Shown here: positions 1 to 28,543 of the stretch, piece by piece
Position numbering within the stretch: the stretch's first letter is position 1
Layout: each line of letters starts with the position of its first letter
Assembly: GCA_964592755.1 (NCBI GenBank)
Contig: CAZQFS010000001.1
Coordinates: 41,731-91,769, forward strand
Reading direction: 5' to 3'
Length of the DNA: 50,039 bases
DNA from: an uncultured bacterium
Lineage (GTDB): Bacteria; Hydrothermota; Tepidihabitantia; Tepidihabitantales; Tepidihabitantaceae
The notes under the pieces: generated by a model
The model's input: the letters and a program-made list of their open reading frames with translations, nothing else
Databases searched by the model: none
Told to the model about the DNA's origin: nothing
Position numbers and translations under genes: made by a program

Positions 1-1553
1 TCCAGGGGGAGCGGCGGGTCTGGACCTATCGCGCGTTTCGGGAGCAAGTCCTGCCCGAGGCCTATCCCGAGCGTGAACACGTGCCAAAGACCCTCATCTT
101 CGCCAAGGACGACTCCCATGCCGAGGACATCGTCGGCATCGTGCGTGAGGAGTTCGGCAAAGGCGACGACTTCTGCCAGAAAATCACCTATCGCACCGGC
201 TTCATACGCGTGCCCCTCCCCGGGCATGAGTCCGAACCCAACCCGCCACATACCTGGGAGAAGGTGTCGAACGTCTCCGGTGCTGATGTTCTGCGCGTCT
301 TCCGCACGTCCTTCAACCCGCGCATAGCTGTGACCGTAGACATGATTGCCACCGGCACCGACGTGAAGGCGATAGAGGTCCTGGTCTTCATGCGCAACGT
401 CATGTCCGCCGGGTTCTTTGAGCAGATGAAAGGCCGTGGCGTCAGGGTGATGGACCCTGAGAAACTCAAGGCCGTTACCCCGGACGCCATCATCAAAGAC
501 CGCTTCATCATCGTGGACGCAGTCGGCGTCTGCGAGCGAGACAAGACTGAAACCACGCCACTGGAACGCCGGCCCAACGTCTCGCTCAGGAAGCTGCTTG
601 CCTTCGTCGCTGCCGGCGGGACCGAAGAGGACGCCCTCACATCACTTGCCGGCCGGCTGATGCGACTGGACCGGAAGCTGGTTCCAGAACACAAGGATGA
701 ACTCCGCAAGCTGGCCGACGGCAGGAGCCTGTCGGACCTTGCCGGTGCGCTCGTTCGCGCCACCGACCCGGATGAACAAGAGGCTGCCGCCCGAGCCAAC
801 GCCGGGCTTTTGCCAGACCGGCAGCCGACCGAGGAACAGGTAGCCAAGGCCACAAGCGAACTGATGCAGGCGGCGGCAAAGCCCTTTCACGACCCCAAGC
901 TAAGACAACGGCTCGTCGAACTCCACCAGGAATCCGAGCAGGTGATAGACATTGTCTCCGGTGATGAACTGCTCTCCTCGCAACTGGCCAAGGACACCGC
1001 GGAACGCGCCGGTGAGGTCGTGCGCGACTTCCGCGCGTGGATTGAGAAGAACAAGGACGAGATAGAGGCGTTGCAGGTGCTCTACTCCGGCCGGTACGCC
1101 AGCCGGCTCAAGCTCAGCGCCGTGAAAGACCTCGCCCGACAGCTCAAGAACCCTCCGCTAAGCACCAACCCTTCCGAGGTCTGGCATGCCTTTGAGCTCG
1201 TCGAGGGCCGCAAACCCGGCGGGTCCAGAGTTCGGCAGGCCGCCGACTTGATACGGCTCGTGCGCCATGCGCTGGAGCCGTCTGAACCGCTGGCGGCGTT
1301 CGCTGAGACCGTGGCAGAGAGGTACAAGGCCTGGCTTGCCGCGCAGGACATGGCAGGTGTGGAGTTCAACGACCAGCAACGGGAATGGCTGGATAAGATA
1401 GCCGAACACATCGGCAACAGCGTGACCTTCGAGGAAGAGGACTTCGACTACGGCTGGTTCGCCCAGCACGGGCGCCTCGGCAGAGCCAGCCAGCTCTTCG
1501 GCTCAAGGCTGAACGACCTGATTGCCAGCCTGAACGATGAACTGGCCGCATGA
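1..1553 (+). CDS. hsdR: Type I restriction enzyme R subunit (HsdR), C-terminal part; 5' end is outside the window
   Basis: The frame is open from nt 3 (QGERRVWTYRAF...), so the listed GTG at 81 is internal. Helicase C-lobe motifs KTLIFAKDDSHAEDIV and VDMIATGTDVKAIEVLVFMR...MKGRGVR are present. A long helical tail ends ...FGSRLNDLIASLNDELAA, as in EcoEI/COG4096-type HsdR. Same strand as hsdS and hsdM. Confidence 0.85.
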   Translation, partial: QGERRVWTYRAFREQVLPEAYPEREHVPKTLIFAKDDSHAEDIVGIVREEFGKGDDFCQKITYRTGFIRVPLPGHESEPNPPHTWEKVSNVSGADVLRVFRTSFNPRIAVTVDMIATGTDVKAIEVLVFMRNVMSAGFFEQMKGRGVRVMDPEKLKAVTPDAIIKDRFIIVDAVGVCERDKTETTPLERRPNVSLRKLLAFVAAGGTEEDALTSLAGRLMRLDRKLVPEHKDELRKLADGRSLSDLAGALVRATDPDEQEAAARANAGLLPDRQPTEEQVAKATSELMQAAAKPFHDPKLRQRLVELHQESEQVIDIVSGDELLSSQLAKDTAERAGEVVRDFRAWIEKNKDEIEALQVLYSGRYASRLKLSAVKDLARQLKNPPLSTNPSEVWHAFELVEGRKPGGSRVRQAADLIRLVRHALEPSEPLAAFAETVAERYKAWLAAQDMAGVEFNDQQREWLDKIAEHIGNSVTFEEEDFDYGWFAQHGRLGRASQLFGSRLNDLIASLNDELAA

Positions 1554-1657
1554 TTGACACGCCCGGTTCGTGCATGACCAGCAGTCAACCGGCTGCGGTT
1601 AAGAAGCGGCCACCAGATTGATGCGCTCGAGTGTATACCAATTTGTCATCACCTCGC

Positions 1658-1686
1658 TTGACTATATGCCATTTTGGCATTATCAT
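1658..1686 (+). promoter_or_regulatory. Sigma70-like promoter TTGACT-17nt-TATCAT with a 6-3-6 palindrome (ATGCCA TTT TGGCAT, 1666-1680) in the spacer
   Basis: -35 TTGACT at 1658-1663 and -10 TATCAT at 1681-1686, 17-nt spacer, in a locally AT-rich patch of a GC-rich genome. The perfect inverted repeat inside the spacer is a plausible operator for the XRE-type HTH encoded immediately downstream. ATG 1692 lies 5 nt after the -10. Confidence 0.5.
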
Positions 1687-1691
1687 GTTCC

Positions 1692-2864
1692 ATGAGAGGA
1701 CGAGATACCGTGACCGCTAAGTCCGGCATTTCCAGGGCCATAGCCGCGCGTCTGGCCCACGCCCGAACCGAGGCCGGCCTGACCCTGCGCGCCGCAGCCA
1801 AGGAGCTCGGTTTCGACAGCTACCAGACTCTCTCGAAAATCGAGAAGGGAGAACGTCCGGTTCGCGCGACCGAACTCGTGAGTATCGCCCAGCTGTACCA
1901 GCGCAGCGTCGGCTACTTCCTTGCTTCAGAGGCTCCTGTCGCCCGTCCGGCCGTGCTCTGGCGCGGCCGGGCCGACTCCCCGACCCGTCTCAAGGTCGAA
2001 CATCGGTTCCTGCAGTACTGCGAAGACTACGCCCGGCTGGAAGAGCTTGCGGGTCACTCCGCGCCGCGGTTTCCTCTGAAGTGGCCCGAACGTGTCGAAA
2101 GCTTCGGCCAAGCGGAAAGGGCAGCGCAGGCGACCTCGGCGCAGATGGGGCTCGGGCCGTGTCCTGGACCGAGTCTTTCAGATGTGCTAGAGGACAGGTT
2201 CGGCGTCAAGGTCTTGATCACCGACACCGAGGGGGCCGGTTCGGCCGCCTCGGTCATGGATTCCTTCGGCGCAGGGATACTCATCAACCGTCATGAAGCC
2301 CCGTGGCGTATGAACTTCAGCCTGGCGCACGAACTCTTCCATCTTGTTACCTGGGGTATGTTCGAGCCATCTGAGATACACTGCGGCAACGCGAAGACGG
2401 CCCCGGAGAGATTCGCCGACCGCTTCGCGGCGGTGTTGCTGCTGCCGGACACCGCGGTGCGAAGGGAATTCGAGTCAAGGGTCAAGGACAAGGCGCTCTC
2501 CTACATAGACTGCCTGGCGATGGCCCGCGAATTCGGTGTGTCAATCGACGCTATGGTCTGGCGGCTGGCGTCACTTCGGCTGGTGGACCGGAAGTCCGCC
2601 GAAGCAGCCCTCAAGTCGGATAAGTTGCGCGAGTTGAGCAAGACTGAACGACGGGAGGACTGGGCTGACGAACGGGTCCACTCGGGACGCTCGCGCCGCT
2701 TCACGGCCCTGGCAATCGAATGCCTTCTGTCCGGACACGTCTCCCGGGGCAGATTCTCCGAGTTGACGGGCATCAGTCGCGGCAGCATCGACGCCTTCCT
2801 CAAGCTATCCGGGTACGACCCCGCGGGTGACTACGTTGGCGAAATCAGCACTAGTACTGCTTGA
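1692..2864 (+). CDS. XRE-family HTH fused to ImmA/IrrE-type (COG2856) zinc metallopeptidase
   Basis: N-terminal HTH: LTLRAAAKELGFDSYQTLSKIEKGERPVRATELVSIAQLY. HExxH zinc site: SLAHELFHLVTW. This is followed by FAAVLLLPDTAV, typical of COG2856. Start is either ATG 1692 (leaderless relative to the promoter) or GTG 1710 preceded by GAGGA at 1696-1700. The listed TTG 1674 lies inside the promoter. Confidence 0.8.
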   Translation: MRGRDTVTAKSGISRAIAARLAHARTEAGLTLRAAAKELGFDSYQTLSKIEKGERPVRATELVSIAQLYQRSVGYFLASEAPVARPAVLWRGRADSPTRLKVEHRFLQYCEDYARLEELAGHSAPRFPLKWPERVESFGQAERAAQATSAQMGLGPCPGPSLSDVLEDRFGVKVLITDTEGAGSAASVMDSFGAGILINRHEAPWRMNFSLAHELFHLVTWGMFEPSEIHCGNAKTAPERFADRFAAVLLLPDTAVRREFESRVKDKALSYIDCLAMAREFGVSIDAMVWRLASLRLVDRKSAEAALKSDKLRELSKTERREDWADERVHSGRSRRFTALAIECLLSGHVSRGRFSELTGISRGSIDAFLKLSGYDPAGDYVGEISTSTA

Positions 2865-3363
2865 TGCTGATGTGGTCATTGAGGCCTTCCGGCTCGGCAT
2901 CTGGGCTCATCTTGTCACCAAGGCCGACATCTACGTAGCTGCAACCGTGGCCGAGGAGGCGATGCATTACTTCGACCCGGCGACGGGCCAGAGGCGTTAC
3001 ATTGACCTGGCTGCCGAGGTCGGCGGAAAGAGAATCACCATCCTCAACGGCGACGCGACCGAGATGGCGCGCGTGCAGGCCGCCTGCCGTCGGCACTGGG
3101 TGGACCTGGACACAGGAGAACTCGAGTCGATTGCGATTGTGGCCACAGGGTCGTATAGCTTCTGCACTGCCGACCGTGCCGCGGCCGAGGCCATGGCCCT
3201 GCTCGACATGCAGGGCCGAGCCATATCGCTCGAGGAATTCGTCCGCAGGCACGGAATCGCGTCGAGAATCAGCATGAAGCCCTACTACTCTGCAGCGACG
3301 ATGACCAGGTGGCTCAAAGAAGGCGGCATCCTGAAGGCGCAGACGTTCAGGACGAAGCGTTGA
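2827..3363 (+). CDS. PIN-like nuclease domain protein
   Basis: Acidic residues are spaced as in PIN folds: LLDADVVIEA, VAEEAMHY, DLDTGELESIAIV, FCTADRAAAEA. Overlaps the upstream ImmA-HTH gene by 38 nt (GTG 2827; TTG 2836 is an alternative), suggesting translational coupling. Confidence 0.6.
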   Translation: MTTLAKSALVLLDADVVIEAFRLGIWAHLVTKADIYVAATVAEEAMHYFDPATGQRRYIDLAAEVGGKRITILNGDATEMARVQAACRRHWVDLDTGELESIAIVATGSYSFCTADRAAAEAMALLDMQGRAISLEEFVRRHGIASRISMKPYYSAATMTRWLKEGGILKAQTFRTKR

Positions 3364-3371
3364 TAGCGCAG

Positions 3372-3443
3372 AGCGTCACGTCGCTCTTCGGCTCCGAGTT
3401 CTACGAGCTGATGGCCAGCATGCCCGAGACACTGGCCGCATGA
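3372..3443 (+). pseudogene. Relic of a second hsdR 3' end (last about 23 codons plus stop)
   Basis: Translates to SVTSLFGSEFYELMASMPETLAA*, against the resident hsdR end ASQLFGSRLNDLIASLNDELAA* (1485-1553). By hand alignment 50 of 69 nt are identical, including the shared terminal 12-mer ctggccgcatga. The relic stop overlaps the ATG of the next gene (ATGA at 3440-3443). Confidence 0.55.
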
Positions 3444-4138
3444 GCGTCACGCTGGAGTTCAAGACAGTCGCCTACGACTCGGTTGCACTCCCTTTGGGGT
3501 TCCCCGACATTCACACGTCCGACGCCATAACTGCGCAGCAGGAGGCTGCCGTGGTGCAGTGGCTACTCGGCCGCAGCCCGGCCAAGGGACTTGTCATGTC
3601 TGAACTGAAACTGAGCGAAGACGTGTCCTTCTGGCCGGCAGTGGCTGAGCCCGTAACAGACCTGCACCGAAAGCCCGGTGACGTAGACGCGCTACTGTGC
3701 GGAAGGGACAGTCCGCACACAGCGACCGCAGTTGAAGCGAAATGCGTGAAGGTCGTCGCGGTGGCCGTTGGGCAGGACCGTGTGAACCGGCTTGGCAAAC
3801 TCTCGAAAGCGGTCCAGCAGGTGAACGGCCTCCGGGACATGGGCTTCCACGAATCGTATCTTGCGGTCCTGTGTCTCGTGGACGCGCAGGAGCGGCTCGA
3901 GCCAAACACCGTGTTCCGCGAGATGTCGCCCAAAACCCTTTCGCGTGTATACGACTTTCCCTGTCGTGATGACCTGCACCGAGAGGTCGGGTTTCTGATA
4001 GTCGAGATAGCCCAGCCTACTGCCAAGGGCTTCAACCGAATGGCCAACATCAATGTATGCCGCGTCCAAGCCGCCATAGCGCAAGACCAACCTATAGAAT
4101 TGACCAACCGCATTGCGGAGTACGTCAAGTATCACTGA
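3440..4138 (+). CDS. Hypothetical protein with PD-(D/E)xK nuclease-like motif
   Basis: 232-aa ORF with an ATG start. Candidate restriction-endonuclease-fold core GDVDALLC...(11 aa)...AVEAKCVKV (D ... E-x-K). The 3' end overlaps the hsdS start by 26 nt. Confidence 0.55.
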   Translation: MSVTLEFKTVAYDSVALPLGFPDIHTSDAITAQQEAAVVQWLLGRSPAKGLVMSELKLSEDVSFWPAVAEPVTDLHRKPGDVDALLCGRDSPHTATAVEAKCVKVVAVAVGQDRVNRLGKLSKAVQQVNGLRDMGFHESYLAVLCLVDAQERLEPNTVFREMSPKTLSRVYDFPCRDDLHREVGFLIVEIAQPTAKGFNRMANINVCRVQAAIAQDQPIELTNRIAEYVKYH

Positions 4139-5654
4139 GGCCGGCGGCCGGCCACTGCCCCCCGGCTGGGCGCGGACGACTCTGGGCGAGGTCGCTACGC
4201 TGAACCCCAAGCCAAGGAGCCTGCCCGCGGATGGTGCCAGCCCGGTGACCTTTGTCCCGATGTCCGCAGTAGGCGTGGAGCACGGCGGCATTGCCCGGCC
4301 AGAGGTGAGGCGACTGGACCAAGTCCGACGAGGTTACACCCCGTGTCAGTCCGGTGATGTATTGTTCGCCAAGATAACGCCCTGCATGGAGAACGGAAAG
4401 GTGGCCGTCGTACCGGAGAGCCTAGTCGGTGGCATCGGGTTCGGCTCGACCGAGTTTGTGGTGCTACGCCCCAGAGACGGAATCGAGCCGCGCTGGCTGA
4501 GTCGGTTCCTATCGCAGACGTCCTTCCGACGCCGCGCGAGACGGGCCATGACGGGTGCGGTCGGACAGCAGCGCGTTCCGAAGGACTTCATAGCGACCGA
4601 GTCGCTTCGCATCGCGCCCTACCGGGAGCAGCAGCGTATCGCGGACAAGATTGACGAGCTATTCTCAGACCTTGATGCCGGAGTGAAGGCGCTGGGGCGG
4701 GTGAAGAAGAACCTGGAACGCTATCGGGCGTCGGTGCTCAAAGCCGCAGTCGAAGGTCGGCTCACAGCGGATTGGCGCAAGGCGCATCCCAATGTTGAAT
4801 CAGCAACCGAACTCCTGAAGCGCATCCTCAAGGAGCGTCGCAAGCGTTGGGAAGAGGCCCAACTCGCCAGGTACCAAGCCAAAGGCAGACAGCCTCCCAA
4901 AGGCTGGCAGGCGAAGTACAAGGAACCCGCCCCGCCCGACACATCCGAGCTTCCCTCGCTGCCCGAAGGCTGGTGCTGGGCGACGGTGGACATGCTTGGC
5001 GTCGTGTCCGGTGGCCTAACCAAGAACCCAAGTCGTGATTCAGCCCCCAGACGGATGCCATACCTGCGAGTGGCCAACGTCTACGCCGACCGCTTGGCAC
5101 TCGACGACGTCAAGCTGATTGGGGTCTTCGACAGAGAACTGCCGGGTGTGCTCGTTGAGTCAGGCGATCTGCTGGTAGTAGAGGGAAATGGCAGCAAAGA
5201 CCAGATTGGGAGAGTTGCCACTTGGGACGGGAGCGTAAGACCATGCGCTCACCAGAACCACATCATCAAGGTGAGGTTTCTGTTGCCCGAGTTGGGTCGG
5301 TATGTGCAGGACTGGTTGCTCTCGGTACCGGGCAGGCGGCGCGTCGAGAAAGCGGCCAGTTCCACATCGGGACTTTACACGCTGAGCATTTCCAAGGTGC
5401 AGTCGCTTCAAGTTCCTCTCCCTCCCTTGCAGGAGATACTGGCCATCCGCGACGAGGTCGAGAGAAACACGTCTCTTCTGGTTTCCGACGCCACCGTGGC
5501 TGAGACTACGCTGCGCCGCACAGGCGCCCTCCGCCAAGCCATCCTCAAACGGGCCTTTGAGGGACGACTCGTGCCCCAGGACCCGAACGACGAGCCCGCT
5601 GAGAAGCTGCTGGAGAGGATTCGGGCTGAAAGGCGAACCGCCAGTGCGAGATAA
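4113..5654 (+). CDS. hsdS: Type I restriction-modification specificity subunit (HsdS)
   Basis: Two target-recognition halves each begin with the typical LPxGW motif (LPPGWARTTLGEV; LPEGWCWATVDML). They are separated by conserved helical spacers (REQQRIADKIDELFSDLDAGVKAL...; LQEILAIRDEVERN...ILKRAFEGRLV). Only TTG 4113 is available as a start upstream of the first motif. Confidence 0.85.
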   Translation: MRSTSSITEAGGRPLPPGWARTTLGEVATLNPKPRSLPADGASPVTFVPMSAVGVEHGGIARPEVRRLDQVRRGYTPCQSGDVLFAKITPCMENGKVAVVPESLVGGIGFGSTEFVVLRPRDGIEPRWLSRFLSQTSFRRRARRAMTGAVGQQRVPKDFIATESLRIAPYREQQRIADKIDELFSDLDAGVKALGRVKKNLERYRASVLKAAVEGRLTADWRKAHPNVESATELLKRILKERRKRWEEAQLARYQAKGRQPPKGWQAKYKEPAPPDTSELPSLPEGWCWATVDMLGVVSGGLTKNPSRDSAPRRMPYLRVANVYADRLALDDVKLIGVFDRELPGVLVESGDLLVVEGNGSKDQIGRVATWDGSVRPCAHQNHIIKVRFLLPELGRYVQDWLLSVPGRRRVEKAASSTSGLYTLSISKVQSLQVPLPPLQEILAIRDEVERNTSLLVSDATVAETTLRRTGALRQAILKRAFEGRLVPQDPNDEPAEKLLERIRAERRTASAR

Positions 5655-7113
5655 CACCGTTCCCGCCGCAGAGTCAGTCATCGACGTATTCCTTTCCTAC
5701 ACCAGAGCGGACAAGGACTGGGTTCGGGGGCTGGCAGAACGGCTTGAGTCGGAGACCATTGACGGCACCAGGACGGGACGACCAATCAGAGTCTTCTTCG
5801 ATGAATGGGACATAGATGTCGGTGAGAATGTCGTGGTCCACGTCAATGCGGGGCTTGAGAAAGCTCGTTTCACGGCAGTCGTAGTATCACCGGACATGCT
5901 TGGTGCGGATTGGCCGACATACGAATGGACTGCCGTGGTCGCCAGCGACCCTGTGAACCGCGACAAACGCCTCATTCCACTGTTCCTCCGCGACGGCTCC
6001 GAGAAAGGGGGCAACCGCATCGAATTGCCTGCGCCGTTTCGGGTTCTGAACTGGATCGACTTCCGCCGCAAGCAGGACCACAAACGTTCGCTTCAGCGTC
6101 TTCTTCGTCGGATCAGAAGCCTGCCCCCGGCCCGCGGGCGCAGGCTTCCGCCGCTCGCGTATGTCACCCCTGCCGCGCCGGTGCCTTCACCAGAGCGAGA
6201 CACACCGGCTGAAGCCGACACAATACAGGAGGTCGTTCTCAGCAATCTTCTTCCTGTCGAGAGCTATCCTGGCGCAATCTGGAGTGCCCCGACGTCCGCC
6301 CGACAGCGAAGCGACGTCACATCCGAGGCCCCGGACGTGCCGGCATTCGAACTTCGAGAGCAGCGTCTGTACACGTTCACCGATTTGACCCGCCCAGAGG
6401 GTCCGTTTGCGCCGTTCGTGGATAGGGCTGCGGCACACAGCAATGCCGTCTCAAGCTGGATGGGTGATGATGCCCGCTGGCGCTGGTTTATTGCCTTGCT
6501 TAATCGGTGCCTAAGGCTGCATCTCAGGGGGCTGCCAGTCAGACAAGACGAAAAGGGGCGCTTCGTCTTCCTGTCCGACAATGGGGCTACGCGGAAGTGG
6601 TCGTGGGGTCCCGGGCGCAGACGAGAACGCGAGGTTGCCGCAAGAAAGTCCAATCCGGTCACGGGGCAGGAGTTCTGGGTACACCACGGCTCACGCTTGC
6701 GATTCCAGACACTGGGCGACAAGCTGTTCCTTCTTGTAGACCCCTGCTATGTGTTCACGTCAGATGGCATGCAGCCTCTATACAGCCGGGTTGTAGGGCC
6801 GTTGTCGGTGAAGTGGACCGGCCGAGAACGTAACGCGTCCATCTTGCGCCACGTGACGTTCTGGTCTCGGTTTCTGAGTCGCGGCCGGCGGAGGGTGCAA
6901 ATCGAGACCGGGGCAACACCGATAACCTTGTCCTGCGTCCCGGCGCTTGCTCGAACTCAGCGCGGGATAGAGTTCGACCACGTAGGGTTCCAGAACCTCA
7001 TCGACCAGGTCGACGACGAATTGGGCGCGGTTGCCGCCAGCGTCATGGCGTCTGACGCTCAAGGGACTCATGTTTTCGATAATGACGTGCCGGAGGCAGA
7101 TGAGACCACATAG
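5644..7113 (+). CDS. TIR-APAZ protein (SPARTA-type partner of short pAgo)
   Basis: N-terminal TIR: VIDVFLSYTRADKDW, RVFFDEWDIDVGE, AVVVSPDMLGADWPTYEWTAVV (candidate catalytic Glu), LIPLFLRD, LNWIDFRR. About 300 aa of APAZ-sized C-terminal region follow. Sits directly upstream of a short pAgo, as in SPARTA operons. Preferred start is GTG 5644 (GAAAGG 10 nt upstream), overlapping the hsdS stop by 11 nt. The listed TTG 5557 would overlap hsdS by 98 nt. Confidence 0.75.
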   Translation: MRDNTVPAAESVIDVFLSYTRADKDWVRGLAERLESETIDGTRTGRPIRVFFDEWDIDVGENVVVHVNAGLEKARFTAVVVSPDMLGADWPTYEWTAVVASDPVNRDKRLIPLFLRDGSEKGGNRIELPAPFRVLNWIDFRRKQDHKRSLQRLLRRIRSLPPARGRRLPPLAYVTPAAPVPSPERDTPAEADTIQEVVLSNLLPVESYPGAIWSAPTSARQRSDVTSEAPDVPAFELREQRLYTFTDLTRPEGPFAPFVDRAAAHSNAVSSWMGDDARWRWFIALLNRCLRLHLRGLPVRQDEKGRFVFLSDNGATRKWSWGPGRRREREVAARKSNPVTGQEFWVHHGSRLRFQTLGDKLFLLVDPCYVFTSDGMQPLYSRVVGPLSVKWTGRERNASILRHVTFWSRFLSRGRRRVQIETGATPITLSCVPALARTQRGIEFDHVGFQNLIDQVDDELGAVAASVMASDAQGTHVFDNDVPEADETT

Positions 7114-8707
7114 GAGATTCAACACACAGGGCCAGTCCGACGTCTCCCGCGGCGATCTTCTCCAGCAGAAGTTGCTCCGGGACGCCACACCGTCGTTTCA
7201 TTGCTGGCACGTCGCGGAACCAAAGCTGATATTTGCGGATGGACATAGGTGCGAGGACCCCAAGACCGGGCTTACCCTGTATGGGCCAGCCGGATTGGGC
7301 AAGGGCGCACGGTCATCGATTCGGCTCGGGATTATCGGTACGGGAGAAACAGTCCAAATGGTCCGCAACTGGCTCAAGCTGGCAGAGCACAGGATTACTG
7401 CGGGCAGGGACAAGAAAGGCAGGGCCTACGACCCGCTGTTGTCCCCAGACTTCCCCGGGTTCGGTGCTTACCCGCCATTCCACTGTGAAGTCGAGTTGGC
7501 TGACCAACACTGTGTCACCGTGCCGGGAAGGGAGTTCGAGCGCGTTGCCGAACCGGAGGAACTGGGCGCACGCATCAGTCGAGCCATTGAGGTTGTGGCG
7601 GCTCGTCTAGAATCTCTGGCCACAATTGAGCACTCGCCAGACGTAGTCTTGTGCGCGATGCCCAATGTTGTCGACTTGGCCTGTGGTCCCCAACGCGTAC
7701 GCGCTCCTCGGCCGGTCGCGATCACACCGTTCCAGAAGGCCGTCCGGAAACTTCGGCGGAAGGCCGCGAAGCTCGGGCAGTTGGCAATGGACCTTCGTCT
7801 TCCTGAAACCGGTGACGAAGACATGGAACACTGGGACTTCCACAATGCACTCAAGGTGAGAGCCATGCGATTTCGGCTGCCTACCCAGTTGGTCTGGGAG
7901 AGCACACTGACAGGGGCAAAATCGACGCAGGACCCTGCCACGATCGCTTGGAACCTGCTTGTCGCCCTCTACTACAAAGCAGGCAATCTACCTTGGCAAT
8001 TGGACTTTGGAGCCTCAGGCACGTGCTTTGTGGGCGTCACGTTCTACCGAGAAGGACCGGATCCGCAAGCACCTACGAGAATCAGCCTTGCTCAGGTGTA
8101 TTCCGAGGCAGGCGACGGTCTTGTACTGAAGGGCGAGCCAGTGCTGTGGGACCAGAAGCGCGACCGGCGGCCGCATCTTACCAGGGACACGGCCGAGACA
8201 CTCCTTACACGGGCAATCAGGTTGTACGAGCAGCACTACGACCGGGCACCAACGAGAGTAGTGGTGCACAAGACATCCCGCTATTGGCCCGAGGAGCTCG
8301 ATGGCTTCCGAGGTGCGCTTGACGCTATTCGCTCATACGACCTGCTGACTCTTGAGCAACGAGGTATCAGGTTTCTCCGTCTGGGCACCGAGCCACCCCT
8401 GCGCGGAACCGTAGTTCAGTTGGCGAACCGCGACTATCTCGTGTACACTCACGGATACGTGCCGTTTCTCAAGTGTTACCCCGGCATGCGGATTCCCAAT
8501 CCGATCGAGGTGGTAGAGCACCACGGGGATTCGGACGCCGAGCGGGTCTGTAGCGAGATACTCGCCTTGACCAAGCTCAATTGGAACAACTGCAGCTATG
8601 GCAGCGCTGACCCCGTGACAATCGCCTTCTCGCAACAGGTCGGCAGGATTTTGACGGAACTACCCGGCGGGGTTACGCCCGCGACCAATTACCGCTTCTA
8701 CATGTAG
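7100..8707 (+). CDS. Short prokaryotic Argonaute (MID-PIWI only, catalytically inactive)
   Basis: From memory, closely resembles characterised SPARTA Agos: AEPKLIFADGHRCEDPKTGLTLYGP, DFHNALKVRAMRFRLPTQLV (H..K MID motif), TIAWNLLVALYYKAGNLPWQL, ILALTKLNWNNCSYGSADPVTIAFSQQVGRILT, C-terminal YRFYM. PIWI catalytic positions are substituted (CFVGVTFY instead of GxD; VVVHKTSRY). Start is ATG 7100 (GGAGG at 7092-7096, overlaps the upstream stop by 14 nt) or TTG 7172, which better matches homologue N-termini. Confidence 0.8.
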   Translation: MRPHRRFNTQGQSDVSRGDLLQQKLLRDATPSFHCWHVAEPKLIFADGHRCEDPKTGLTLYGPAGLGKGARSSIRLGIIGTGETVQMVRNWLKLAEHRITAGRDKKGRAYDPLLSPDFPGFGAYPPFHCEVELADQHCVTVPGREFERVAEPEELGARISRAIEVVAARLESLATIEHSPDVVLCAMPNVVDLACGPQRVRAPRPVAITPFQKAVRKLRRKAAKLGQLAMDLRLPETGDEDMEHWDFHNALKVRAMRFRLPTQLVWESTLTGAKSTQDPATIAWNLLVALYYKAGNLPWQLDFGASGTCFVGVTFYREGPDPQAPTRISLAQVYSEAGDGLVLKGEPVLWDQKRDRRPHLTRDTAETLLTRAIRLYEQHYDRAPTRVVVHKTSRYWPEELDGFRGALDAIRSYDLLTLEQRGIRFLRLGTEPPLRGTVVQLANRDYLVYTHGYVPFLKCYPGMRIPNPIEVVEHHGDSDAERVCSEILALTKLNWNNCSYGSADPVTIAFSQQVGRILTELPGGVTPATNYRFYM

Positions 8708-8708
8708 C

Positions 8709-10211
8709 ATGAATTCATCACAAATCGGCACCCGGGTCTGGAACATGGCCACCGTGTTGAAGAGCGATGGGCTGAGCTACATGGAGTACGTAGGCCAGAT
8801 TACCTATCTGCTGTTCCTGAAGATGGCGCATGAGCTGACCCAGGCCCCGTACAACCGGCCGAACGTCATCCCGCCGGACAAAGATGGCAACCCGCTGGGT
8901 TGGCCGGAATTGCTGAAGCGCGACGGCGCGGACTTGGCCACGTTCTACGAACATACCCTGACCGAGTTGGGCCGGAAGAAAGGCATGCTCGGCGCCATCT
9001 TCCTGAACGCGAAGAGCGCAATCAAGGACCCGGCCAAGCTCAGGCGGCTTATCGTTGACCTTTTTGAGAAGCAGGAAGGCGGCTGGGTAAGCATGGACGT
9101 GGACGTGAAGGGCGCTATCTATGAGGAGTTGCTCAATCGGACTGCGGCCGAGTCACCTTCCGGCGCGGGCCAGTATTTCACGCCCCGCGAGCTCATCAGG
9201 GCCATAGTGGACGTGATGCAGCCGAAACCCACTGACACTATCTGCGACCCGGCCGCGGGCACCGGCGGATTCCTGCTGATTGCCTATGAATACGTGGTCA
9301 GCCAATACGGGTCAGCGATGGACCGGGACGCCCAGAAGCAGGTGCAGGAGCGCCTCATCAGCGGCATGGAACTGGTGCCGGACACGGGTAGGCTATGCGT
9401 GATGAACCTGTACCTACACACCATTGGTGGAGACGAAACCACCGTCCTGGTTGGTCACGACAGCCTGGCCCAGCCTGCACCCACGACTTATTCGATGGTC
9501 CTGACCAATCCGCCTTTTGGCCGGAAGGGCAGCATCATCACCGTAGACGACGAGGGCGAGCTTGAGCGCGAGCGGCAGGTGGTGAACCGACCCGACTTCT
9601 GGCAGGAGACGACGAACAAGCAGTTGAACTTCCTGCAGCACGTCTACACCATGCTCAAGGTGGACGGCCGGGCCGCAATTGTCCTGCCTGACAACGTGCT
9701 ATTCGAGGGCGGGGCCGGGGAGAAAATCCGGCGCAGGCTGCTTTCGACCTGTGATGTTCACACGCTCCTGCGCCTGCCCACCGGCATCTTCTACAAGCCC
9801 GGGGTGAAGGCCAACGTGCTCTTCTTTGACAAGCGGCCCGGTTCGGAGAAGCCGTGGACCACCAAGCTCTGGGTTTATGACCTGCGGACGAACAAGCACT
9901 TCACCTTGAAGCAGAACCCAATCACGCGGGATGACTTCAACGAGTTTGTGGACTGTTGCCGGCCGGGCGAACGGCATCTGCGGACGCCGACCTGGAGTGA
10001 GGAGAACCCGGAAGGCCGCTGGCGGTGCTTTGACTACGAGGAGTTGCAGAAGCGCGACAAGCTGAGCCTCGACCTCTTCTGGCTCAAGGACAAGAGCCTC
10101 GAGGACTCCGAGAACCTGCCCGAGCCCGAAGTCATCGCCGCCGAGATAGCGGACGACCTGCAAGAAGCCCTCGACCAATTCCGCAGCATTGCGAAGGACC
10201 TGGAGCAGTAG
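8709..10211 (+). CDS. hsdM: Type I restriction-modification N6-adenine DNA methyltransferase subunit (HsdM)
   Basis: HsdM N-terminal helix region (YVGQITYLLFLKMAHE), SAM-binding ICDPAAGTGGFLL, catalytic motif IV LTNPPFGRKG. ATG 8709 lies 1 nt after the pAgo stop codon (TAG 8705-8707). Confidence 0.9.
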   Translation: MNSSQIGTRVWNMATVLKSDGLSYMEYVGQITYLLFLKMAHELTQAPYNRPNVIPPDKDGNPLGWPELLKRDGADLATFYEHTLTELGRKKGMLGAIFLNAKSAIKDPAKLRRLIVDLFEKQEGGWVSMDVDVKGAIYEELLNRTAAESPSGAGQYFTPRELIRAIVDVMQPKPTDTICDPAAGTGGFLLIAYEYVVSQYGSAMDRDAQKQVQERLISGMELVPDTGRLCVMNLYLHTIGGDETTVLVGHDSLAQPAPTTYSMVLTNPPFGRKGSIITVDDEGELERERQVVNRPDFWQETTNKQLNFLQHVYTMLKVDGRAAIVLPDNVLFEGGAGEKIRRRLLSTCDVHTLLRLPTGIFYKPGVKANVLFFDKRPGSEKPWTTKLWVYDLRTNKHFTLKQNPITRDDFNEFVDCCRPGERHLRTPTWSEENPEGRWRCFDYEELQKRDKLSLDLFWLKDKSLEDSENLPEPEVIAAEIADDLQEALDQFRSIAKDLEQ

Positions 10212-10415
10212 TCCGGCTTCTCGTTCTTTCCCGAACTCACCCACACTTTCCCCCGTCCGGCTCAGGCCCGAAGTGCGCATGATAGGTGAGGTCAGATTGC
10301 TCTTTGACAACTTGTCTTGTGCACAACCGCGGGCCGGGCAGCCAGGCCCGCGGTAGCGACGGCCGGCCGGTTGCGGCCCGGCCGGCCACCGCCGCAGAAA
10401 GGAGGTGGAAACACC

Positions 10416-10790
10416 ATGAGCGACCCGACAAAGCGCATCGCCAACTGGGACGCCGGCTACGACACCTCGGCCATCAAGGCCAAGGTGGATAAGAAGCGGC
10501 CGGACATGCTCTCCCGGGTGCAGGCTCAGTTTCCTGCCATTTCCTCGATGGAGGGGCAGGTGAAGCAGGTGCTCGACCTGGCGGGCTCAACGGTCATCGA
10601 ATACCCGTTTTACCTGAGCTTCGCACGCGAGTTGTGGAGCATGACCCACGAGCGGGAAATCTCCGGCGAGGCTGCGGCGGTCGAGGCTGAGACCCTCATC
10701 GTGAAATGGGTGGCCCGCGGACTGACGCGCAGCGTGCTGGAGAACATCCGCACCGGCGTGTTCAACATCGCGCCGCCTTCATCGCCGTAA
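10416..10790 (+). CDS. Hypothetical small protein (124 aa)
   Basis: ATG 10416 is preceded by a strong SD (AAAGGAGGTG, 10398-10407). The listed start at 10317 runs through GC-rich hairpins. No recognisable domain. Confidence 0.5.
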   Translation: MSDPTKRIANWDAGYDTSAIKAKVDKKRPDMLSRVQAQFPAISSMEGQVKQVLDLAGSTVIEYPFYLSFARELWSMTHEREISGEAAAVEAETLIVKWVARGLTRSVLENIRTGVFNIAPPSSP

Positions 10791-10807
10791 GGCGAAGCAA
10801 GGACAAC

Positions 10808-10837
10808 GGCGGCAGAGAGGGCTGCATCTCTGCCGCC
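10808..10837. terminator. 11-bp GC-rich hairpin between convergent genes (bidirectional terminator candidate)
   Basis: GGCGGCAGAGA (10808-10818), loop gggctgca, TCTCTGCCGCC (10827-10837). Lies between the end of the 10416-10790 CDS and the 3' end of rnpB. No strong U-tract. Confidence 0.45.
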
Positions 10838-10865
10838 TCTGACTTGAGGGTCTGCGGACGAAGCT

Positions 10866-11240
10866 GGTACGAGGCGGGTCTGTAAGCCGAGTTCTGTACC
10901 AGACCCTGGGGCCTGGTGACGGTCATTTATCTGGACACCGGGTTGCCCTGGTGCCTCAAGCAGCCTACCCGGGAATCGTCGCGGACCGGGCCGGTCCTGT
11001 TCCCATCTTGGCCTTGCACCCGGCAGGGTTTTTCCGCCCGACACGTCACCGCGCCGGGCAGTGCGCTCTTACCGCACTTTTTCACCCTTACCCTGGACGA
11101 AAACAGGGCGGTGTGGTTTCTGTGACACTTTCCGTCCACGGGCCGTCTCCGGCCCGCAGCCTCGCTCTTAACGAGTGCCGTGCCCTGCGGTGCTCGGACT
11201 TTCCTCCCGGCATGCCGGGCGACCGTCCGACCCGCCTCAC
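10866..11240 (-). ncRNA. rnpB: RNase P RNA, bacterial type A
   Basis: The minus strand reads GAGGAAAGTCCGAGC (CR-I), GGGTAAGGGTGAAAAAGTGCGGTAAGAGCGCAC and ACAGAACTCGGCTTACAG (CR-V). P1 pairing: 5' GAGGCGGGTC (complement of 11229-11238) with 3' GACCCGCCTC (complement of 10871-10880). Length is about 375 nt. Ends are approximate to within about 5 nt. Confidence 0.85.
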
Positions 11241-19297: not shown

Positions 19298-19690
19298 ATG
19301 CAAATCCCCGCTGGCAAGGCACTAGTGCGCCAGATTGAAGAGCTGAGCGGTCAGGTCGTTTCGGACTGCTACCAATGCGGGTGCTGTACTTCCGGCTGCC
19401 CGATAGGCGAAGACATGGACCCGCCGCCAAGCAAGGCCATCCGTCTGTTGCAACTGGACCGGGCGCACGAGCTCCTAGCGTCAGAAGGCATCTGGCTGTG
19501 CGCGTCGTGCCTGGTCTGCGGCACGCGCTGCCCGCGGGCAGTAGACTATGCGCGCATCGCCGAAGCCTGCCGGGCCATCATCCTGCGCACGCGGCAGAGC
19601 AAAGTGGACCCGGATACCGTGACCGGCCCTGACCTGGACGAGATTCCCCAGCAGGCGTTCATCGCCAGCTTTCGCAAGTTCTCGGTATGA
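19298..19690 (+). CDS. hdrC: Heterodisulfide reductase subunit C-like (2x[4Fe-4S])
   Basis: CYQCGCCTSGCP and CASCLVCGTRCP motifs, about 130 aa. ATGA overlap with hdrB. Confidence 0.8.
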   Translation: MQIPAGKALVRQIEELSGQVVSDCYQCGCCTSGCPIGEDMDPPPSKAIRLLQLDRAHELLASEGIWLCASCLVCGTRCPRAVDYARIAEACRAIILRTRQSKVDPDTVTGPDLDEIPQQAFIASFRKFSV

Positions 19691-20544
19691 GGTACGTTTA
19701 CTACCCGGGCTGCACGCTCTACACCAAGGCGAGGAACCTGGACTCCTGTGCCCGCAAGGCCGCGGCCCGGGTCGGGTTTGAGCTGGTCGAGATGCCCTCG
19801 TGGAACTGCTGCGGGGCAATCTACAACACCGGCACCGACGACCTCGCGGCCCAGGTCGGGCCGGTGCGCAACCTGGCCAAGGCCAGTCAGTTGGGCGAAA
19901 AGCTTGTGACCCTGTGTGCTGCCTGCCACAACGTGCTCAAGCGGGTCGACGACCGGCTCCATGCGCAGGGGAATCAGGTCGAGCGCGACCGGCTCATTGC
20001 CTTTGTCGATGAGAAGTTCGAGCGCCGGGTCCGGGTGATGCACTACATCGAGGTGCTCAAGAACGATATCGGGTTCGGGAAGGTGAAGGAGAAAGTGACG
20101 AAGTCGCTCGCGGGCCTCAAAGTCGCCTCCTACTACGGATGCCTGATGGTGCGGCCCAGGGAGGTGCTGCAGTTCGATGACCCGGAGAACCCGCAGGTGA
20201 TGGATGACCTGGTGGCAACCCTGGGCGCGGTACCGACGCCGTTCGACTTCAAGGCCGAGTGCTGCGGCGGATACCTGGTGGTGAACCGGCGGGACGTTGC
20301 CCGGACCGCGTCAAAGAGGATTCTCGATAACGCCCGAGCGCGCGGGGCCGAGACGATTGTCACCACCTGCCCGCTGTGCCAACACAACGTGGACAAGCTG
20401 CGGCCGGTCGGTGACGGCACGATGCCGGTGTTCTACTTCACTCAGTTACTCGGGCTCGCGGTCGGGCTGCCGGTCGAGGACCTGGGTTTCGAGCACAACG
20501 CGTTTGACCCGAAGCCGTTCCTGAAGCAGAAAGGCCTCATCTGA
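19687..20544 (+). CDS. hdrB: Heterodisulfide reductase subunit B-like (two CCG domains)
   Basis: YYPGCTL..., WNCCGA and ECCGG Cys-rich CCG motifs, TTCPLCQHN. Confidence 0.85.
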   Translation: MRYVYYPGCTLYTKARNLDSCARKAAARVGFELVEMPSWNCCGAIYNTGTDDLAAQVGPVRNLAKASQLGEKLVTLCAACHNVLKRVDDRLHAQGNQVERDRLIAFVDEKFERRVRVMHYIEVLKNDIGFGKVKEKVTKSLAGLKVASYYGCLMVRPREVLQFDDPENPQVMDDLVATLGAVPTPFDFKAECCGGYLVVNRRDVARTASKRILDNARARGAETIVTTCPLCQHNVDKLRPVGDGTMPVFYFTQLLGLAVGLPVEDLGFEHNAFDPKPFLKQKGLI

Positions 20545-22493
20545 TGGCCGGCCGGCCCCGGGTCGGCGTGCTCGTCTGCCATTGCGGCATCAACATCGCC
20601 GGCGTCGTGAAGGTTCCGGAGGTGATGGAACGCGTCGCCCGGTGGGACGGCGTCGCGGTTGTGAAGGACTACAAGTACTGCTGCTCAGACCCGGGCCAGC
20701 AGATGATTCGTGAGGCCGTCAAGGCCGACCGGCTCGACCGGGTCATCGTCGCCTGCTGCTCGCCGACCCTGCACGAGACGACATTCCGCAACGCCTGCGC
20801 CGAGGCGGGTTTGAACCCATACCTCTGCGAGATTGCCAACATCCGCGAGCAGTGCTCGTGGGTGACCAAGGACAAAGACCAGGCCACGACCAAGGCGACC
20901 GAGATTATCAGAACCGTGCTGGCCAAGGCCGAGCTCGACCAGCCGCTCGAATCCATCACCGTGCCCATCAACAAGCGGGCACTGGTCATCGGCGCCGGCA
21001 TCGCCGGCATCCAGGCCGCACTGGACATTGCCAATGCCGGCTACGAGGTCGTGCTGGTCGAGAAAGAGCCCTCTATCGGCGGGCACATGGCCCAGCTGTC
21101 CGAGACCTTCCCGACCCTTGACTGCTCCCAGTGCATTCTGACACCGCGCACGGTCGAGGCCGGCCGTCACCCGAAGATAAGGCTCATGACCTACTCCGAG
21201 GTCGAGAGCGTCTCCGGGTACGTCGGCAACTTCCGGGTGAGGATACGGCAGAAGGCGAGATACGTGGACTTTGATGCCTGCACCGGCTGCGGCCTGTGCA
21301 TGGAGAAATGCCCGGGCCGGGCCGAGTCGAGCTTTGAGCGCGGCATGGCAAAACGCAAGGCGATTTACCGCCTGCTGCCCCAGGCCGTGCCGAACCGGCC
21401 GGTGATTGACGCGCAGTCGTGCCTGTACCTGCTCAAGGGCAAGTGCGGGGTGTGTGCCAAAATCTGCCCGACCCAGGCGATTCGCTACGACGACAAGGAC
21501 AAGCTCGCTGAGGAAGAGGTCGGCGCGATTGTGATGGCGACCGGGTACGAGCTGTTCGACGCGGCCAAGCTCGGTTCGTACGGAGTGGGAACGGTGCCGG
21601 ACGTGATTGACGGGCTGGCGTTCGAGCGGCTGTTGTCGGCTTCCGGCCCGACTTCGGGCGACGTGAAACGGCCCAGCGACGGCAAAACCCCGAAGAAAGT
21701 CGTCTTTGTCCAGTGCGCGGGCTCGCGCGACTCGACTCAGGGCATGCCGTACTGCTCGAAGATATGCTGCATGTACACCGCGAAGCAGGCCATCCTGTAC
21801 AAGCACCGGGTGCACGACGGCGAGGCGACGGTCTGCTACATCGACGTGCGCACGCCGGGCAAAGGGTTCGAGGAGTTCTACCGGCGCGCAACCGACGAAG
21901 GAGTTCAGTACCTGCGTGGCAAGGTTTCGAAGATTTACAGGCAGGGCGACAAGGTCGTCGTGTGGGCATCAGACACCTTGGCCGGCCGCAAGGTCGAGCT
22001 CGAAGCCGACCTTGTGGTGCTGGCAACCGCGGTGGTCGCAAACCCGGACGGGGTCGCGCTCGCCCACAAGCTCAAGACCCAGCTCGACTCCCACGGGTTC
22101 ATGACCGAGGCGCACCCGAAACTCCGACCAGTCGAGACCCTGACCGCCGGGTTCTTCCTCGCCGGGTGCGGACAGGGGCCGAAAGACATCCCTGAGACCG
22201 TGGCCCAGGCCTCGGCCGCCGCGGCCAAGGTTCTCGCGATGTTCGGCTCGACCAAACTGACCCATGCGCCGACCGTCGCGGTCGTGGAAGAGGAGATTTG
22301 TGTCGGCTGTGGTAACTGCGAGCGGACCTGCGCTTACGAGGCGGTCAAGGTCGATACCAAGCGCGGACTCGCGGTCGTGAACGCGGCGCTGTGCGAAGGA
22401 TGCGGCGCGTGTGCCATGAGCTGTCCGTCCGGCGCCATGAACCACAAGAACTTCACCAAGAAGGCCATTCTCGAAATGGCGGACCAGTTCTAG
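20544..22493 (+). CDS. hdrA: Heterodisulfide reductase subunit A-like flavoprotein
   Basis: N-terminal Cys domain (VLVCHCGINIAGV...IVACCSPTLHE...IREQCSWV), FAD fold (VIGAGIAGIQAALDIANAG...GGHMAQLSETFPTLDCSQCILTPR), inserted and C-terminal ferredoxin motifs (CTGCGLCMEKCP; CVGCGNCERTC; CEGCGACAMSCP). Confidence 0.9.
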   Translation: MAGRPRVGVLVCHCGINIAGVVKVPEVMERVARWDGVAVVKDYKYCCSDPGQQMIREAVKADRLDRVIVACCSPTLHETTFRNACAEAGLNPYLCEIANIREQCSWVTKDKDQATTKATEIIRTVLAKAELDQPLESITVPINKRALVIGAGIAGIQAALDIANAGYEVVLVEKEPSIGGHMAQLSETFPTLDCSQCILTPRTVEAGRHPKIRLMTYSEVESVSGYVGNFRVRIRQKARYVDFDACTGCGLCMEKCPGRAESSFERGMAKRKAIYRLLPQAVPNRPVIDAQSCLYLLKGKCGVCAKICPTQAIRYDDKDKLAEEEVGAIVMATGYELFDAAKLGSYGVGTVPDVIDGLAFERLLSASGPTSGDVKRPSDGKTPKKVVFVQCAGSRDSTQGMPYCSKICCMYTAKQAILYKHRVHDGEATVCYIDVRTPGKGFEEFYRRATDEGVQYLRGKVSKIYRQGDKVVVWASDTLAGRKVELEADLVVLATAVVANPDGVALAHKLKTQLDSHGFMTEAHPKLRPVETLTAGFFLAGCGQGPKDIPETVAQASAAAAKVLAMFGSTKLTHAPTVAVVEEEICVGCGNCERTCAYEAVKVDTKRGLAVVNAALCEGCGACAMSCPSGAMNHKNFTKKAILEMADQF

Positions 22494-26963: not shown

Positions 26964-26992
26964 GAGACGATTCGGAGACGGAGGTACGGAAG

Positions 26993-27415: not shown

Positions 27416-27422
27416 GGGAACG

Positions 27423-28541: not shown

Positions 28542-28543
28542 GG

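Follow-up and report, generated by a model that had tools for sequence, protein, structure and literature searches.

A RosmerTA-like gene pair, probably inserted as a cassette, and a separate resident nuclease-like gene in a type I restriction operon of an uncultured Tepidihabitantaceae bacterium

The stretch of DNA analysed here, referred to as the window, comprises 50,039 nucleotides of contig CAZQFS010000001.1 (assembly GCA_964592755.1) from an uncultured bacterium of the Hydrothermota family Tepidihabitantaceae. It opens within hsdR of a type I restriction operon whose genes, from hsdR to hsdM, all lie on the + strand (Table 1). Three open reading frames (ORFs) stand between hsdR and hsdS: ORF1, encoding a helix-turn-helix (HTH) domain joined to a Zn-peptidase; ORF2, encoding a putative PIN-like toxin; and ORF3, encoding a protein with a PD-(D/E)xK-type motif. 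An initial annotation, made from the sequence alone, had treated the three as one regulatory and nuclease trio. Our comparison indicates that ORF1 and ORF2 make up a RosmerTA-like cassette, which was probably inserted into the operon, and that ORF3 is a separate, resident gene.

Table 1. Features of the type I operon and of the genes within it, in window coordinates
Feature	Position	Strand	Description
hsdR, 3' part	81..1553	+	Type I restriction subunit, Pfam EcoEI_R_C (E = 2.8e-33); upstream of the proposed insertion
Candidate operator O2	1635..1649	+	ATACCAATTTGTCAT; 31 bp upstream of O1, 2 mismatches to the O1 pattern
Promoter, sigma-70-type	1658..1686	+	TTGACT-17 nt-TATCAT; 10/12 consensus positions
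Operator O1 (predicted)	1666..1680	.	Perfect inverted repeat 6+3+6, ATGCCAtttTGGCAT (ATGCCA ttt TGGCAT), in the promoter spacer
ORF1	1692..2864	+	390 aa; XRE-HTH, M78/ImmA-IrrE Zn-peptidase and conserved C-terminal domain; RmrA-like
ORF2	2836..3363	+	Putative toxin, PIN-like, 175 aa; may also start at GTG 2827
Relic hsdR 3' end	3381..3443	+	63 nt, encodes ...SLFGSEFYELMASMPETLAA and a stop; ends in ATGA overlapping the ORF3 start
ORF3	3440..4138	+	232 aa; PD-(D/E)xK-type motif; overlaps hsdS by 26 nt
hsdS	4113..5654	+	Specificity subunit; PADLOC Specificity_I (E = 5.5e-154, residues 14-510)
SPARTA-like pair	5557..8707	+	TIR-APAZ (5557-7113), then short pAgo (7031-8707), between hsdS and hsdM; Pfam TIR_2 (E = 3.6e-24), PADLOC Aga/APAZ, pAgo_I (E = 1.7e-148)
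hsdM	8709..10211	+	Type I methyltransferase, Pfam N6_Mtase (E = 1.8e-62), PADLOC MTase_I (E = 1.8e-175); ends the defence operon

ORF1 and ORF2 as a recurrent pair

ORF1 carries an XRE-type HTH domain at residues 17-76 (Pfam HTH_3/HTH_31) and a Peptidase_M78 domain at residues 168-292 (E = 1.7e-14), as anticipated from the initial description of a fused XRE HTH and Zn-peptidase with the motif HELFH. This motif, H213-E214-x-x-H217, is invariant together with E239 in 18/18 homologues of 26 to 72% identity, and because the HEXXH + E239 set holds over this range, the peptidase is very probably active. RosmerTA antitoxins have an ImmA/IrrE-type Zn-peptidase domain, in most cases with an N-terminal XRE HTH, and 14 PADLOC models of the RosmerTA antitoxin RmrA match ORF1 (best E = 2.3e-21). 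The NCBIfam model spr1629 matches below its cut-off, and the best PHROG match, phrog_2439 (E = 1.6e-36), is labelled 'transcriptional regulator'.

A scan of species-representative genomes for relatives of ORF2 gave 17 loci, 15 of them with an intact ORF2 relative. An ORF1 homologue (E = 1e-48 to 1e-111) lies immediately upstream at 15/15 of the intact loci, with overlapping reading frames, across Planctomycetota, WOR-3, Aegiribacteria, Bacillota, Actinomycetes, Thermodesulfobacteriota and Desulfomonilia. Within 10 kb of these 15 loci there is no ORF3 relative and there are no hsd genes; the neighbours are heterogeneous and mostly housekeeping genes. The same pairing recurs at metagenome loci L002 to L006 and on a Burkholderia plasmid (hhalign 97.5%). 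The co-occurrence check that the initial annotation had proposed thus holds for ORF1 and ORF2, while ORF3 accompanies them at none of the intact loci. In RosmerTA the adjacent, co-transcribed toxin gene, RmrT, comes from diverse families. ORF2, a candidate for this place, is a small overlapping gene kept at every intact related locus, but the PADLOC RmrT models match neither ORF2 nor 65 of its relatives. In the window it overlaps ORF1 by 29 nt when read from TTG 2836, which is the start in public gene calls and fits the 175-aa homologues. The 38-nt overlap given initially applies to the GTG at 2827.

The claim that these genes have a consensus promoter of their own with a palindromic operator stands. 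Promoter-like sites of this quality number 2 in the region against 0.5 expected, and both promoter and palindrome are conserved at the metagenome locus L006 (ORF2 63% identical), which keeps the -35 box, the spacing, the palindrome as ATACCAATTTGGCAT, the -10 box and the position of the ATG. DNA further upstream and in the flanks is not conserved between L006 and the window. With up to two mismatches allowed, the O1 pattern has 4 matches in the whole window against 1.5 expected; O2 is 1 nt apart from the L006 operator. Most related loci have their own TTGACA-type promoter and palindrome. We predict from this arrangement that O1 is the autorepression site of the ORF1 HTH domain, and O2 may be a second operator. 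The palindrome was also considered as the mark of a regulon and was rejected, the pattern being restricted in the window to the cassette's own promoter. There is no terminator 3' of ORF2 and none between ORF2 and ORF3, so transcripts probably run on from the cassette promoter into ORF3-hsdS-SPARTA-hsdM, with a possible side effect of this read-through on downstream expression.

The ATG of ORF1 at 1692 lies only 5 nt past the -10 hexamer, and the spacing is the same in L006 (~290-315); because of this spacing at both loci, the ORF1 mRNA may be leaderless or nearly so. An alternative start in the window, GTG 1710, has GAGAGG in front of it. At more distant loci, ORF1 homologues are preceded by ordinary leaders with Shine-Dalgarno sequences.

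The ORF2 family comprises at least 347 clusters, all unannotated. Its conserved acidic residues are D10 (64/65), E95 (65/65), E97 (64/65) and D113 (65/65), plus a Glu at 41/42, and its motifs are LLDAD, GExES and FC(T/S)xD; the family thus has the three to five conserved acidic residues expected of PIN domains. There is in addition an extra conserved C-terminal segment with S131 and G140. For comparison, nine plasmid proteins were aligned as a PIN reference; their annotations read DUF3368, 'PIN domain-containing' or 'VapC family toxin', and several of them directly follow XRE-ImmA genes homologous to ORF1. The ORF2 family aligned with this reference by hhalign at a probability of 73% (E = 3.1e-5, 105 columns) with all four conserved acidic positions in register, whereas an unrelated control gave 0.2%. 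We therefore regard ORF2, with moderate confidence, as a divergent PIN-like protein, kin of the COG2405/DUF3368 partners of HTH-DUF955 proteins.

Taken as a whole, ORF1 and ORF2 are best described as a conserved, mobile, self-promoted two-gene module of the protease-antitoxin/toxin type, with ORF1 as the putative antitoxin and ORF2 as the putative toxin. Toxin-antitoxin modules typically show such a scattered distribution and carry promoters of their own.

Some relatives depart from the intact arrangement. In metagenome-assembled genomes of WOR-3 (L009:10001-10528, L022:10001-10138 and L023:3832-3909) the ORF1 homologue is intact and the ORF2 relative seemingly interrupted or truncated, a decay expected of a toxin gene that fails while the antitoxin/repressor persists. 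On Sinorhizobium meliloti plasmid pC (L077:1-6077), an XRE-ImmA gene and a shortened ORF2-like gene (137 aa) lie within a DISARM locus, between a DNA methyltransferase gene and drmA. The 137-aa protein matches the C-terminal two thirds of the ORF2 family (hhalign 90%), and the locus is a second case of such a cassette nested in another defence system.

ORF3 and the hsdR-hsdS junction

The closest homologue of ORF3 (78% identity) belongs to a sister operon, L001, with the gene order hsdR-ORF3-hsdS-DUF4357-hsdM. There the upstream frame ends in SLNEELAA and a stop (compare SLNDELAA and a stop in hsdR of the window) and overlaps the ORF3 start by 4 nt (ATGA), while the overlap of ORF3 with hsdS has the geometry seen in the window. 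At L080 (ORF3 71% identity) a frame ending in LNEARAA and a stop, again with ATGA, precedes ORF3 and hsdS, and contig P0012 has the same hsdR-ORF3-hsdS geometry. The ImmA-ORF2 pair is absent from L001, L080 and the P0012 contig. Because ORF3 homologues sit between hsdR and hsdS without the cassette, no ORF3 relative occurs at ImmA-ORF2 loci and a remnant of hsdR adjoins ORF3 in the window, we place ORF3, on comparative grounds, outside the cassette as a separate gene native to the hsdR-hsdS junction. The trio as a set has to be given up.

The remnant just mentioned lies between ORF2 and ORF3. Positions 3381-3443 share 47/63 nt with the end of hsdR, 1491-1553 (z about 8), while the runner-up within the window reaches 35/63 and the background is 16.8 +/- 3.7; the same relic is seen by alignment with L001. 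Because the window, L006 and L002 have unrelated DNA past the ORF2 stop, the right end of the cassette is put at about 3363-3380 and the relic is assigned to the host operon. That the relic had been carried along with the cassette was rejected for the same reason. On the simplest interpretation, some 1.8 kb of cassette DNA entered the operon between hsdR and ORF3, and a duplicated or recombinant hsdR 3' end remained.

Two further details of the junction were noted. In a 27-nt direct repeat with 70% identity (1539-1565 and 1603-1629), the hsdR stop region GAACTGGCCGCATGATTGACACGCCCG recurs about 64 nt further downstream; the repeat may be another, degenerate remnant of the insertion junction or a product of chance. 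Within the relic, 3411-3443 forms a 10-codon mini-ORF, MASMPETLAA and a stop that overlaps the ORF3 ATG (ATGA), which could have preserved termination-reinitiation coupling for ORF3 since the insertion.

The D...ExK core first noted in the 232-aa ORF3 product was confirmed as PGDVD (D81, D83)...E99-A-K101, with E35 upstream. A full hidden Markov model (HMM) search at E <= 0.001 collected 469 cluster representatives at 50% identity, mostly of ~245 aa and unannotated. Among 114 aligned members, E35, D83, K101 and G184 are invariant; position 81 holds D in 111/114 (E in 3), and at position 99 there is E in 95 members with Q in the other 19. The family consensus, KPGDIDxL...(15)...ECKRVKV, is a classic PD-(D/E)xK signature, and ORF3 has the catalytic motif. 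No Pfam, NCBIfam, PHROGs or PADLOC model matches ORF3 itself. Scanning the 114 members gave a few sub-threshold matches, to Mrr_cat (0.0037), PDDEXK_9 (0.00098) and HSDR_N_2 (0.012), others being to Tox-REase-2 and Card1. Against the PDB the family had a motif-only match to 9wuf, a 'restriction endonuclease', and profile searches of PDB sequences gave nothing useful for either ORF2 or ORF3. The order of strands and helices in a low-confidence model of ORF3 fits alpha-beta-beta-beta-alpha-beta. By its motif only, ORF3 has a putative PD-(D/E)xK fold.

Two ideas about the origin of ORF3 were tried and rejected: that it duplicates the HsdR nuclease domain or has an Mrr-like profile (hhalign with EcoKMrr and with the HsdR nuclease domain, <1%), and that it substitutes for a nuclease lost from HsdR, in which the motif ADYLLY...IEAK is intact. 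Because HsdR keeps its own nuclease motif, ORF3 would be an additional nuclease-like protein and no replacement; most likely it is a stand-alone nuclease embedded in the restriction operon.

The wider ORF3 family was followed in metagenomes with a five-sequence sub-alignment, which gave 53 loci. Their neighbours are variable (integrases, SAVED, ResIII, TrwC, TIR, DUF499), with no recurring partner and no ImmA partner across the 53. A general tie of the wider family to type I restriction-modification was rejected, hsdM/hsdS being nearby at 1/53 of these loci, in addition to one HsdS run-on protein. Patterns for close ORF3 homologues found nothing in genome and metagenome scans. One family member, P0238 (301 aa), has about 50 N-terminal residues (...LRDTLLPKLISGELRV...) that resemble the C-terminal end of HsdS, with many Specificity_I matches. 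Whether this reflects the fusion of two genes or a gene call that ran on, it puts a further ORF3 relative immediately behind hsdS.

The host operon and its surroundings

A near-identical 64-kb metagenome contig, L081, extends the view to the left of the window, and the window arrangement is present in two further samples as well. On L081 the complete hsdR encodes 950 aa with HSDR_N, ResIII and EcoEI_R_C domains, preceded by genes for a divergent two-component system and for a sigma factor. From these flanks and the full hsdR, the defence operon measures about 11.5 kb and has a chromosomal setting. A near-consensus promoter, TTGACT-17-TATAAC (L081:5204-5232), lies upstream of the window, ~30 nt before the hsdR start, and is likely the main operon promoter. 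The cassette's operator palindrome has no copy at this hsdR promoter.

The slot between hsdS and hsdM holds a DUF4357 gene in L001 (L001:2417-3295), whereas it holds the SPARTA pair in the window; the hsdS-hsdM junction thus seems to be a site where embedded defence genes can be exchanged. Directly after hsdM, an ORF at 10317-10790 (157 aa; 124 aa in the public gene call) has no Pfam match; it could be one more island passenger or the gene with which the flank begins. Genes with housekeeping functions in an anaerobe follow 3' of hsdM (radical SAM, purF-like, heterodisulfide-reductase-like). Further on, 19687-32330 holds clustered genes for large flavin/FeS oxidoreductases with CCG and 4Fe-4S domains (heterodisulfide-reductase-like) plus an F420-hydrogenase-beta-like protein, which indicates a strictly anaerobic host and bears no relation to the cassette. 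An Rfam scan of 1-11000 returned no known RNAs, and a tRNA search of the whole window found none.

Reading of the locus and related systems

We consider it probable that a RosmerTA-like ORF1-ORF2 cassette was inserted into the type I operon and that ORF3 is a separate resident gene. In the mechanism we propose, the promoter at 1658-1686 would drive ORF1 and the translationally coupled ORF2, and ORF1 dimers would bind the spacer palindrome, perhaps the upstream half-degenerate site too, and repress the operon. ORF1 would hold the ORF2 nuclease harmless, and the strict conservation of HEXXH...E suggests that proteolysis, beyond mere binding, is part of the neutralisation. Infection or stress would upset ORF1 and free ORF2 to cleave RNA, and the resulting growth arrest would act as abortive infection or as an addiction that stabilises the island. 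ORF3 would ancestrally have been coupled to hsdR translation through the ATGA overlap; the insertion would have parted the two, with the 63-nt relic remaining and the coupling to hsdS retained. The analysis shows the gene content, the domains and conserved residues, the kept adjacency of the pair, the conservation of promoter and operator, and the insertion scar; the toxin and antitoxin roles, the RNA target, the trigger, the defence phenotype and the nuclease activity of ORF3 are what we infer. The sensor-effector module of the initial annotation persists here as the HTH-ImmA/PIN-like pair, with its RmrA matches, strict adjacency and PIN profile match, and no longer includes ORF3.

Several results count against this reading. 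The PIN assignment of ORF2 depends on a single moderate hhalign result and the motifs, because ORF2 has no library match (Pfam, NCBIfam, PHROGs and PADLOC, RmrT models included) and its model is poor. Scans of 21 and of 65 ORF2 relatives gave weak matches or none, with the Pfam DUF3368, DUF4411 and PIN models silent. The AlphaFold (AF2) model of ORF2, built from a shallow alignment, reached a pLDDT of 58.7, and Foldseek found nothing with it at E<0.001; PIN structures came up below threshold (1w8i, 1y82, 1v96, 5h4g), intermixed with thioredoxin-like folds. For ORF3 the AF2 model, also from a shallow alignment, has a pLDDT of 42.6, Foldseek was uninformative, and hhalign linked ORF3 neither to EcoKMrr nor to the HsdR nuclease domain. 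The HMM and structure searches suggested by the initial annotation hence yielded the PIN profile match for ORF2, nothing significant by Foldseek, and sub-threshold Pfam matches at most for ORF3. As to the insertion, its route is not fixed, because identity between the hsdR end and its relic is only 75%; the relic may stem from an ancient duplication or from recombination with a different hsdR allele. The cassette spans about 1554-3375, placed immediately past the stop codon of hsdR, with a left border that is not fixed.

That the three genes form one sensor-effector unit, in which a peptidase switch governs both the PIN-like and the PD-(D/E)xK protein, fits their contiguity on one strand, the lack of a terminator between ORF2 and ORF3, and the nuclease- or regulator-like nature of all three. 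We hold it to be very unlikely, however: 15 and more ImmA-ORF2 loci all do without ORF3 relatives, close ORF3 homologues directly follow hsdR without the pair, neighbours vary across the wider ORF3 family and include no ImmA partner, and the relic of hsdR separates ORF2 from ORF3, so that the comparative context largely refutes it. Also very unlikely is a view of ORF1 as the leftover of an ImmR/ImmA- or IrrE/DdrO-type switch of a mobile element or stress regulon, with ORF2 an unrelated passenger. An M78 peptidase with an XRE HTH is indeed the ImmA/IrrE hallmark, and the top PHROG match is to a 'transcriptional regulator'. Yet such a switch has a separate repressor as substrate as well as integrase/excision genes, whereas here a single protein combines repressor and peptidase, the vicinity lacks integrase, excisionase and phage genes, and housekeeping genes flank the island; moreover, ORF2 is co-inherited with ORF1 across phyla in overlapping frames and has a conserved acidic catalytic set.

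The cassette might instead act mainly as a C-protein-like or RptR-like controller of ORF3-hsdS-SPARTA-hsdM, self-cleavage of the peptidase derepressing the whole operon. A strong promoter does point into the operon with no terminator after ORF2, and RptR offers a precedent, as it represses a type I operon in which a toxin-antitoxin pair is embedded (PMC12255303). A restriction-modification controller would be associated with hsd genes across genomes and have operators at the operon promoter; ORF1 shows neither. Elsewhere the module occurs in unrelated, mostly housekeeping contexts, the orthologous operon L001 does without it, no further operator copies occur near other window promoters or upstream of hsdR, and ORF2 would be left without a role. 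From these comparisons a dedicated controller role is unlikely. It is doubtful, too, that ORF1-ORF2 is purely an addiction module, stabilising the restriction/SPARTA island by post-segregational killing and contributing nothing to defence against phages. Its architecture is type II toxin-antitoxin-like, it is scattered across genomes, and a role as stabilisers of defence islands has been suggested for PIN toxin-antitoxin pairs that lie in type I loci (PMC5499597). Against this, tested members of the ImmA-antitoxin class protect against phages (10.1101/2022.05.11.491447; PMC10440598), and stabilisation and defence are compatible, the mechanism being identical. A more ambitious proposal concerns ORF3: it would be an undescribed PD-(D/E)xK family turned integral type I accessory, made in step with HsdR and HsdS as an extra nuclease or sensing subunit, and the inserted promoter, itself controlled by the protease, would put ORF3-hsdS-SPARTA-hsdM under an infection-responsive switch. 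The coupling cited for it is the ATGA overlap to hsdR in L001 and L080 and the 14-26-nt overlap to hsdS, and we give it a slim chance.

The inserted RosmerTA-like cassette, our preferred reading, belongs to a class with precedents. The description of RosmerTA is due to Millman et al. (10.1101/2022.05.11.491447); its antitoxins are Zn-peptidases with diverse toxin partners (10.1101/2022.05.11.491447; PMC10440598); the NetFlax study reported PIN-like partners of the ImmA node (PMC10440598), and S. pneumoniae has a studied Rosmer-family pair, RipAB (Spr1630/Spr1629), whose antitoxin is of the XRE-ImmA type (PMC12795458). ORF1-ORF2 resembles RosmerTA in the N-terminal XRE HTH with ImmA-type Zn-peptidase, the two-gene operon and the small partner from a variable family, but ORF2 falls outside the PADLOC toxin models, the antitoxin gene comes first, and the module lies within a type I operon. 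Matelska et al. (2017) found HTH-DUF955 (COG2856) genes co-transcribed with genes for PIN-like proteins of COG2405/DUF3368, DUF4411, PIN_14, PIN_20 and PIN_26 (PMC5499597). The window shares with these modules a fused HTH-peptidase gene directly upstream of a ~170-aa PIN-like gene, a conserved HEXXH, and an ORF2 profile that aligns with plasmid DUF3368/PIN proteins following XRE-ImmA genes; it differs in that the Pfam DUF3368, DUF4411 and PIN models miss the ORF2 family, which has the extra C-terminal segment. The family may be identical with one of the clusters that lie outside Pfam, PIN_14 for example. In ImmR/ImmA of ICEBs1 and IrrE/DdrO of Deinococcus (PMC12828697), an M78 Zn-peptidase likewise works with an XRE-type repressor, derepression occurring by proteolysis. 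There is in our case one fused protein with a putative nuclease partner, and the context is neither a mobile element nor a DNA-repair regulon.

Genes embedded in type I operons also have precedents, and the initial statement that nothing normally lies between hsdR and hsdS was too strong: TgvAB and RloF occupy this position (PMC11411939), DarTG2 with RptR is embedded in a type I operon (PMC12255303), and PIN toxin-antitoxin pairs have been noted within type I loci (PMC5499597). As there, foreign defence or toxin-antitoxin genes stand between the hsd genes of the window and are probably transcribed together with them; there are three such inserts here, namely the cassette, ORF3 and SPARTA. Here, however, the families are others, a scar is visible, and L001 provides a cassette-free sister operon. 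ORF3 resembles Mrr-like and stand-alone PD-(D/E)xK nucleases in its D...(E/Q)xK with an upstream conserved Glu, and some family members lie in defence or mobile-element neighbourhoods. It differs from Mrr-like nucleases in having no significant EcoKMrr/HsdR profile similarity and no recognisable DNA-binding domain, and in that the gene of its subfamily is translationally coupled to hsdR and hsdS.

The ImmA-antitoxin/PIN-like-toxin class and the embedding of defence genes in type I loci are therefore already known, and because these general principles are published, a specialist would be surprised only to a limited extent. New are the specific ORF2 and ORF3 families, which lie beyond the domain and defence HMM libraries, and the clear insertion scar together with the cassette-free sister operon. 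The reading of the locus is corrected to a mobile RosmerTA-class cassette that is probably nested in a type I operon beside a resident nuclease-like gene. With the duplicated hsdR 3' end and the sister operon, it would be a clean natural case of a defence operon growing by insertion. It also uncovers two sizeable families that databases do not cover, the PIN-like ImmA partner (at least 347 clusters) and the PD-(D/E)xK-motif family (at least 469 clusters), and both are reasonable candidates for experimental testing.

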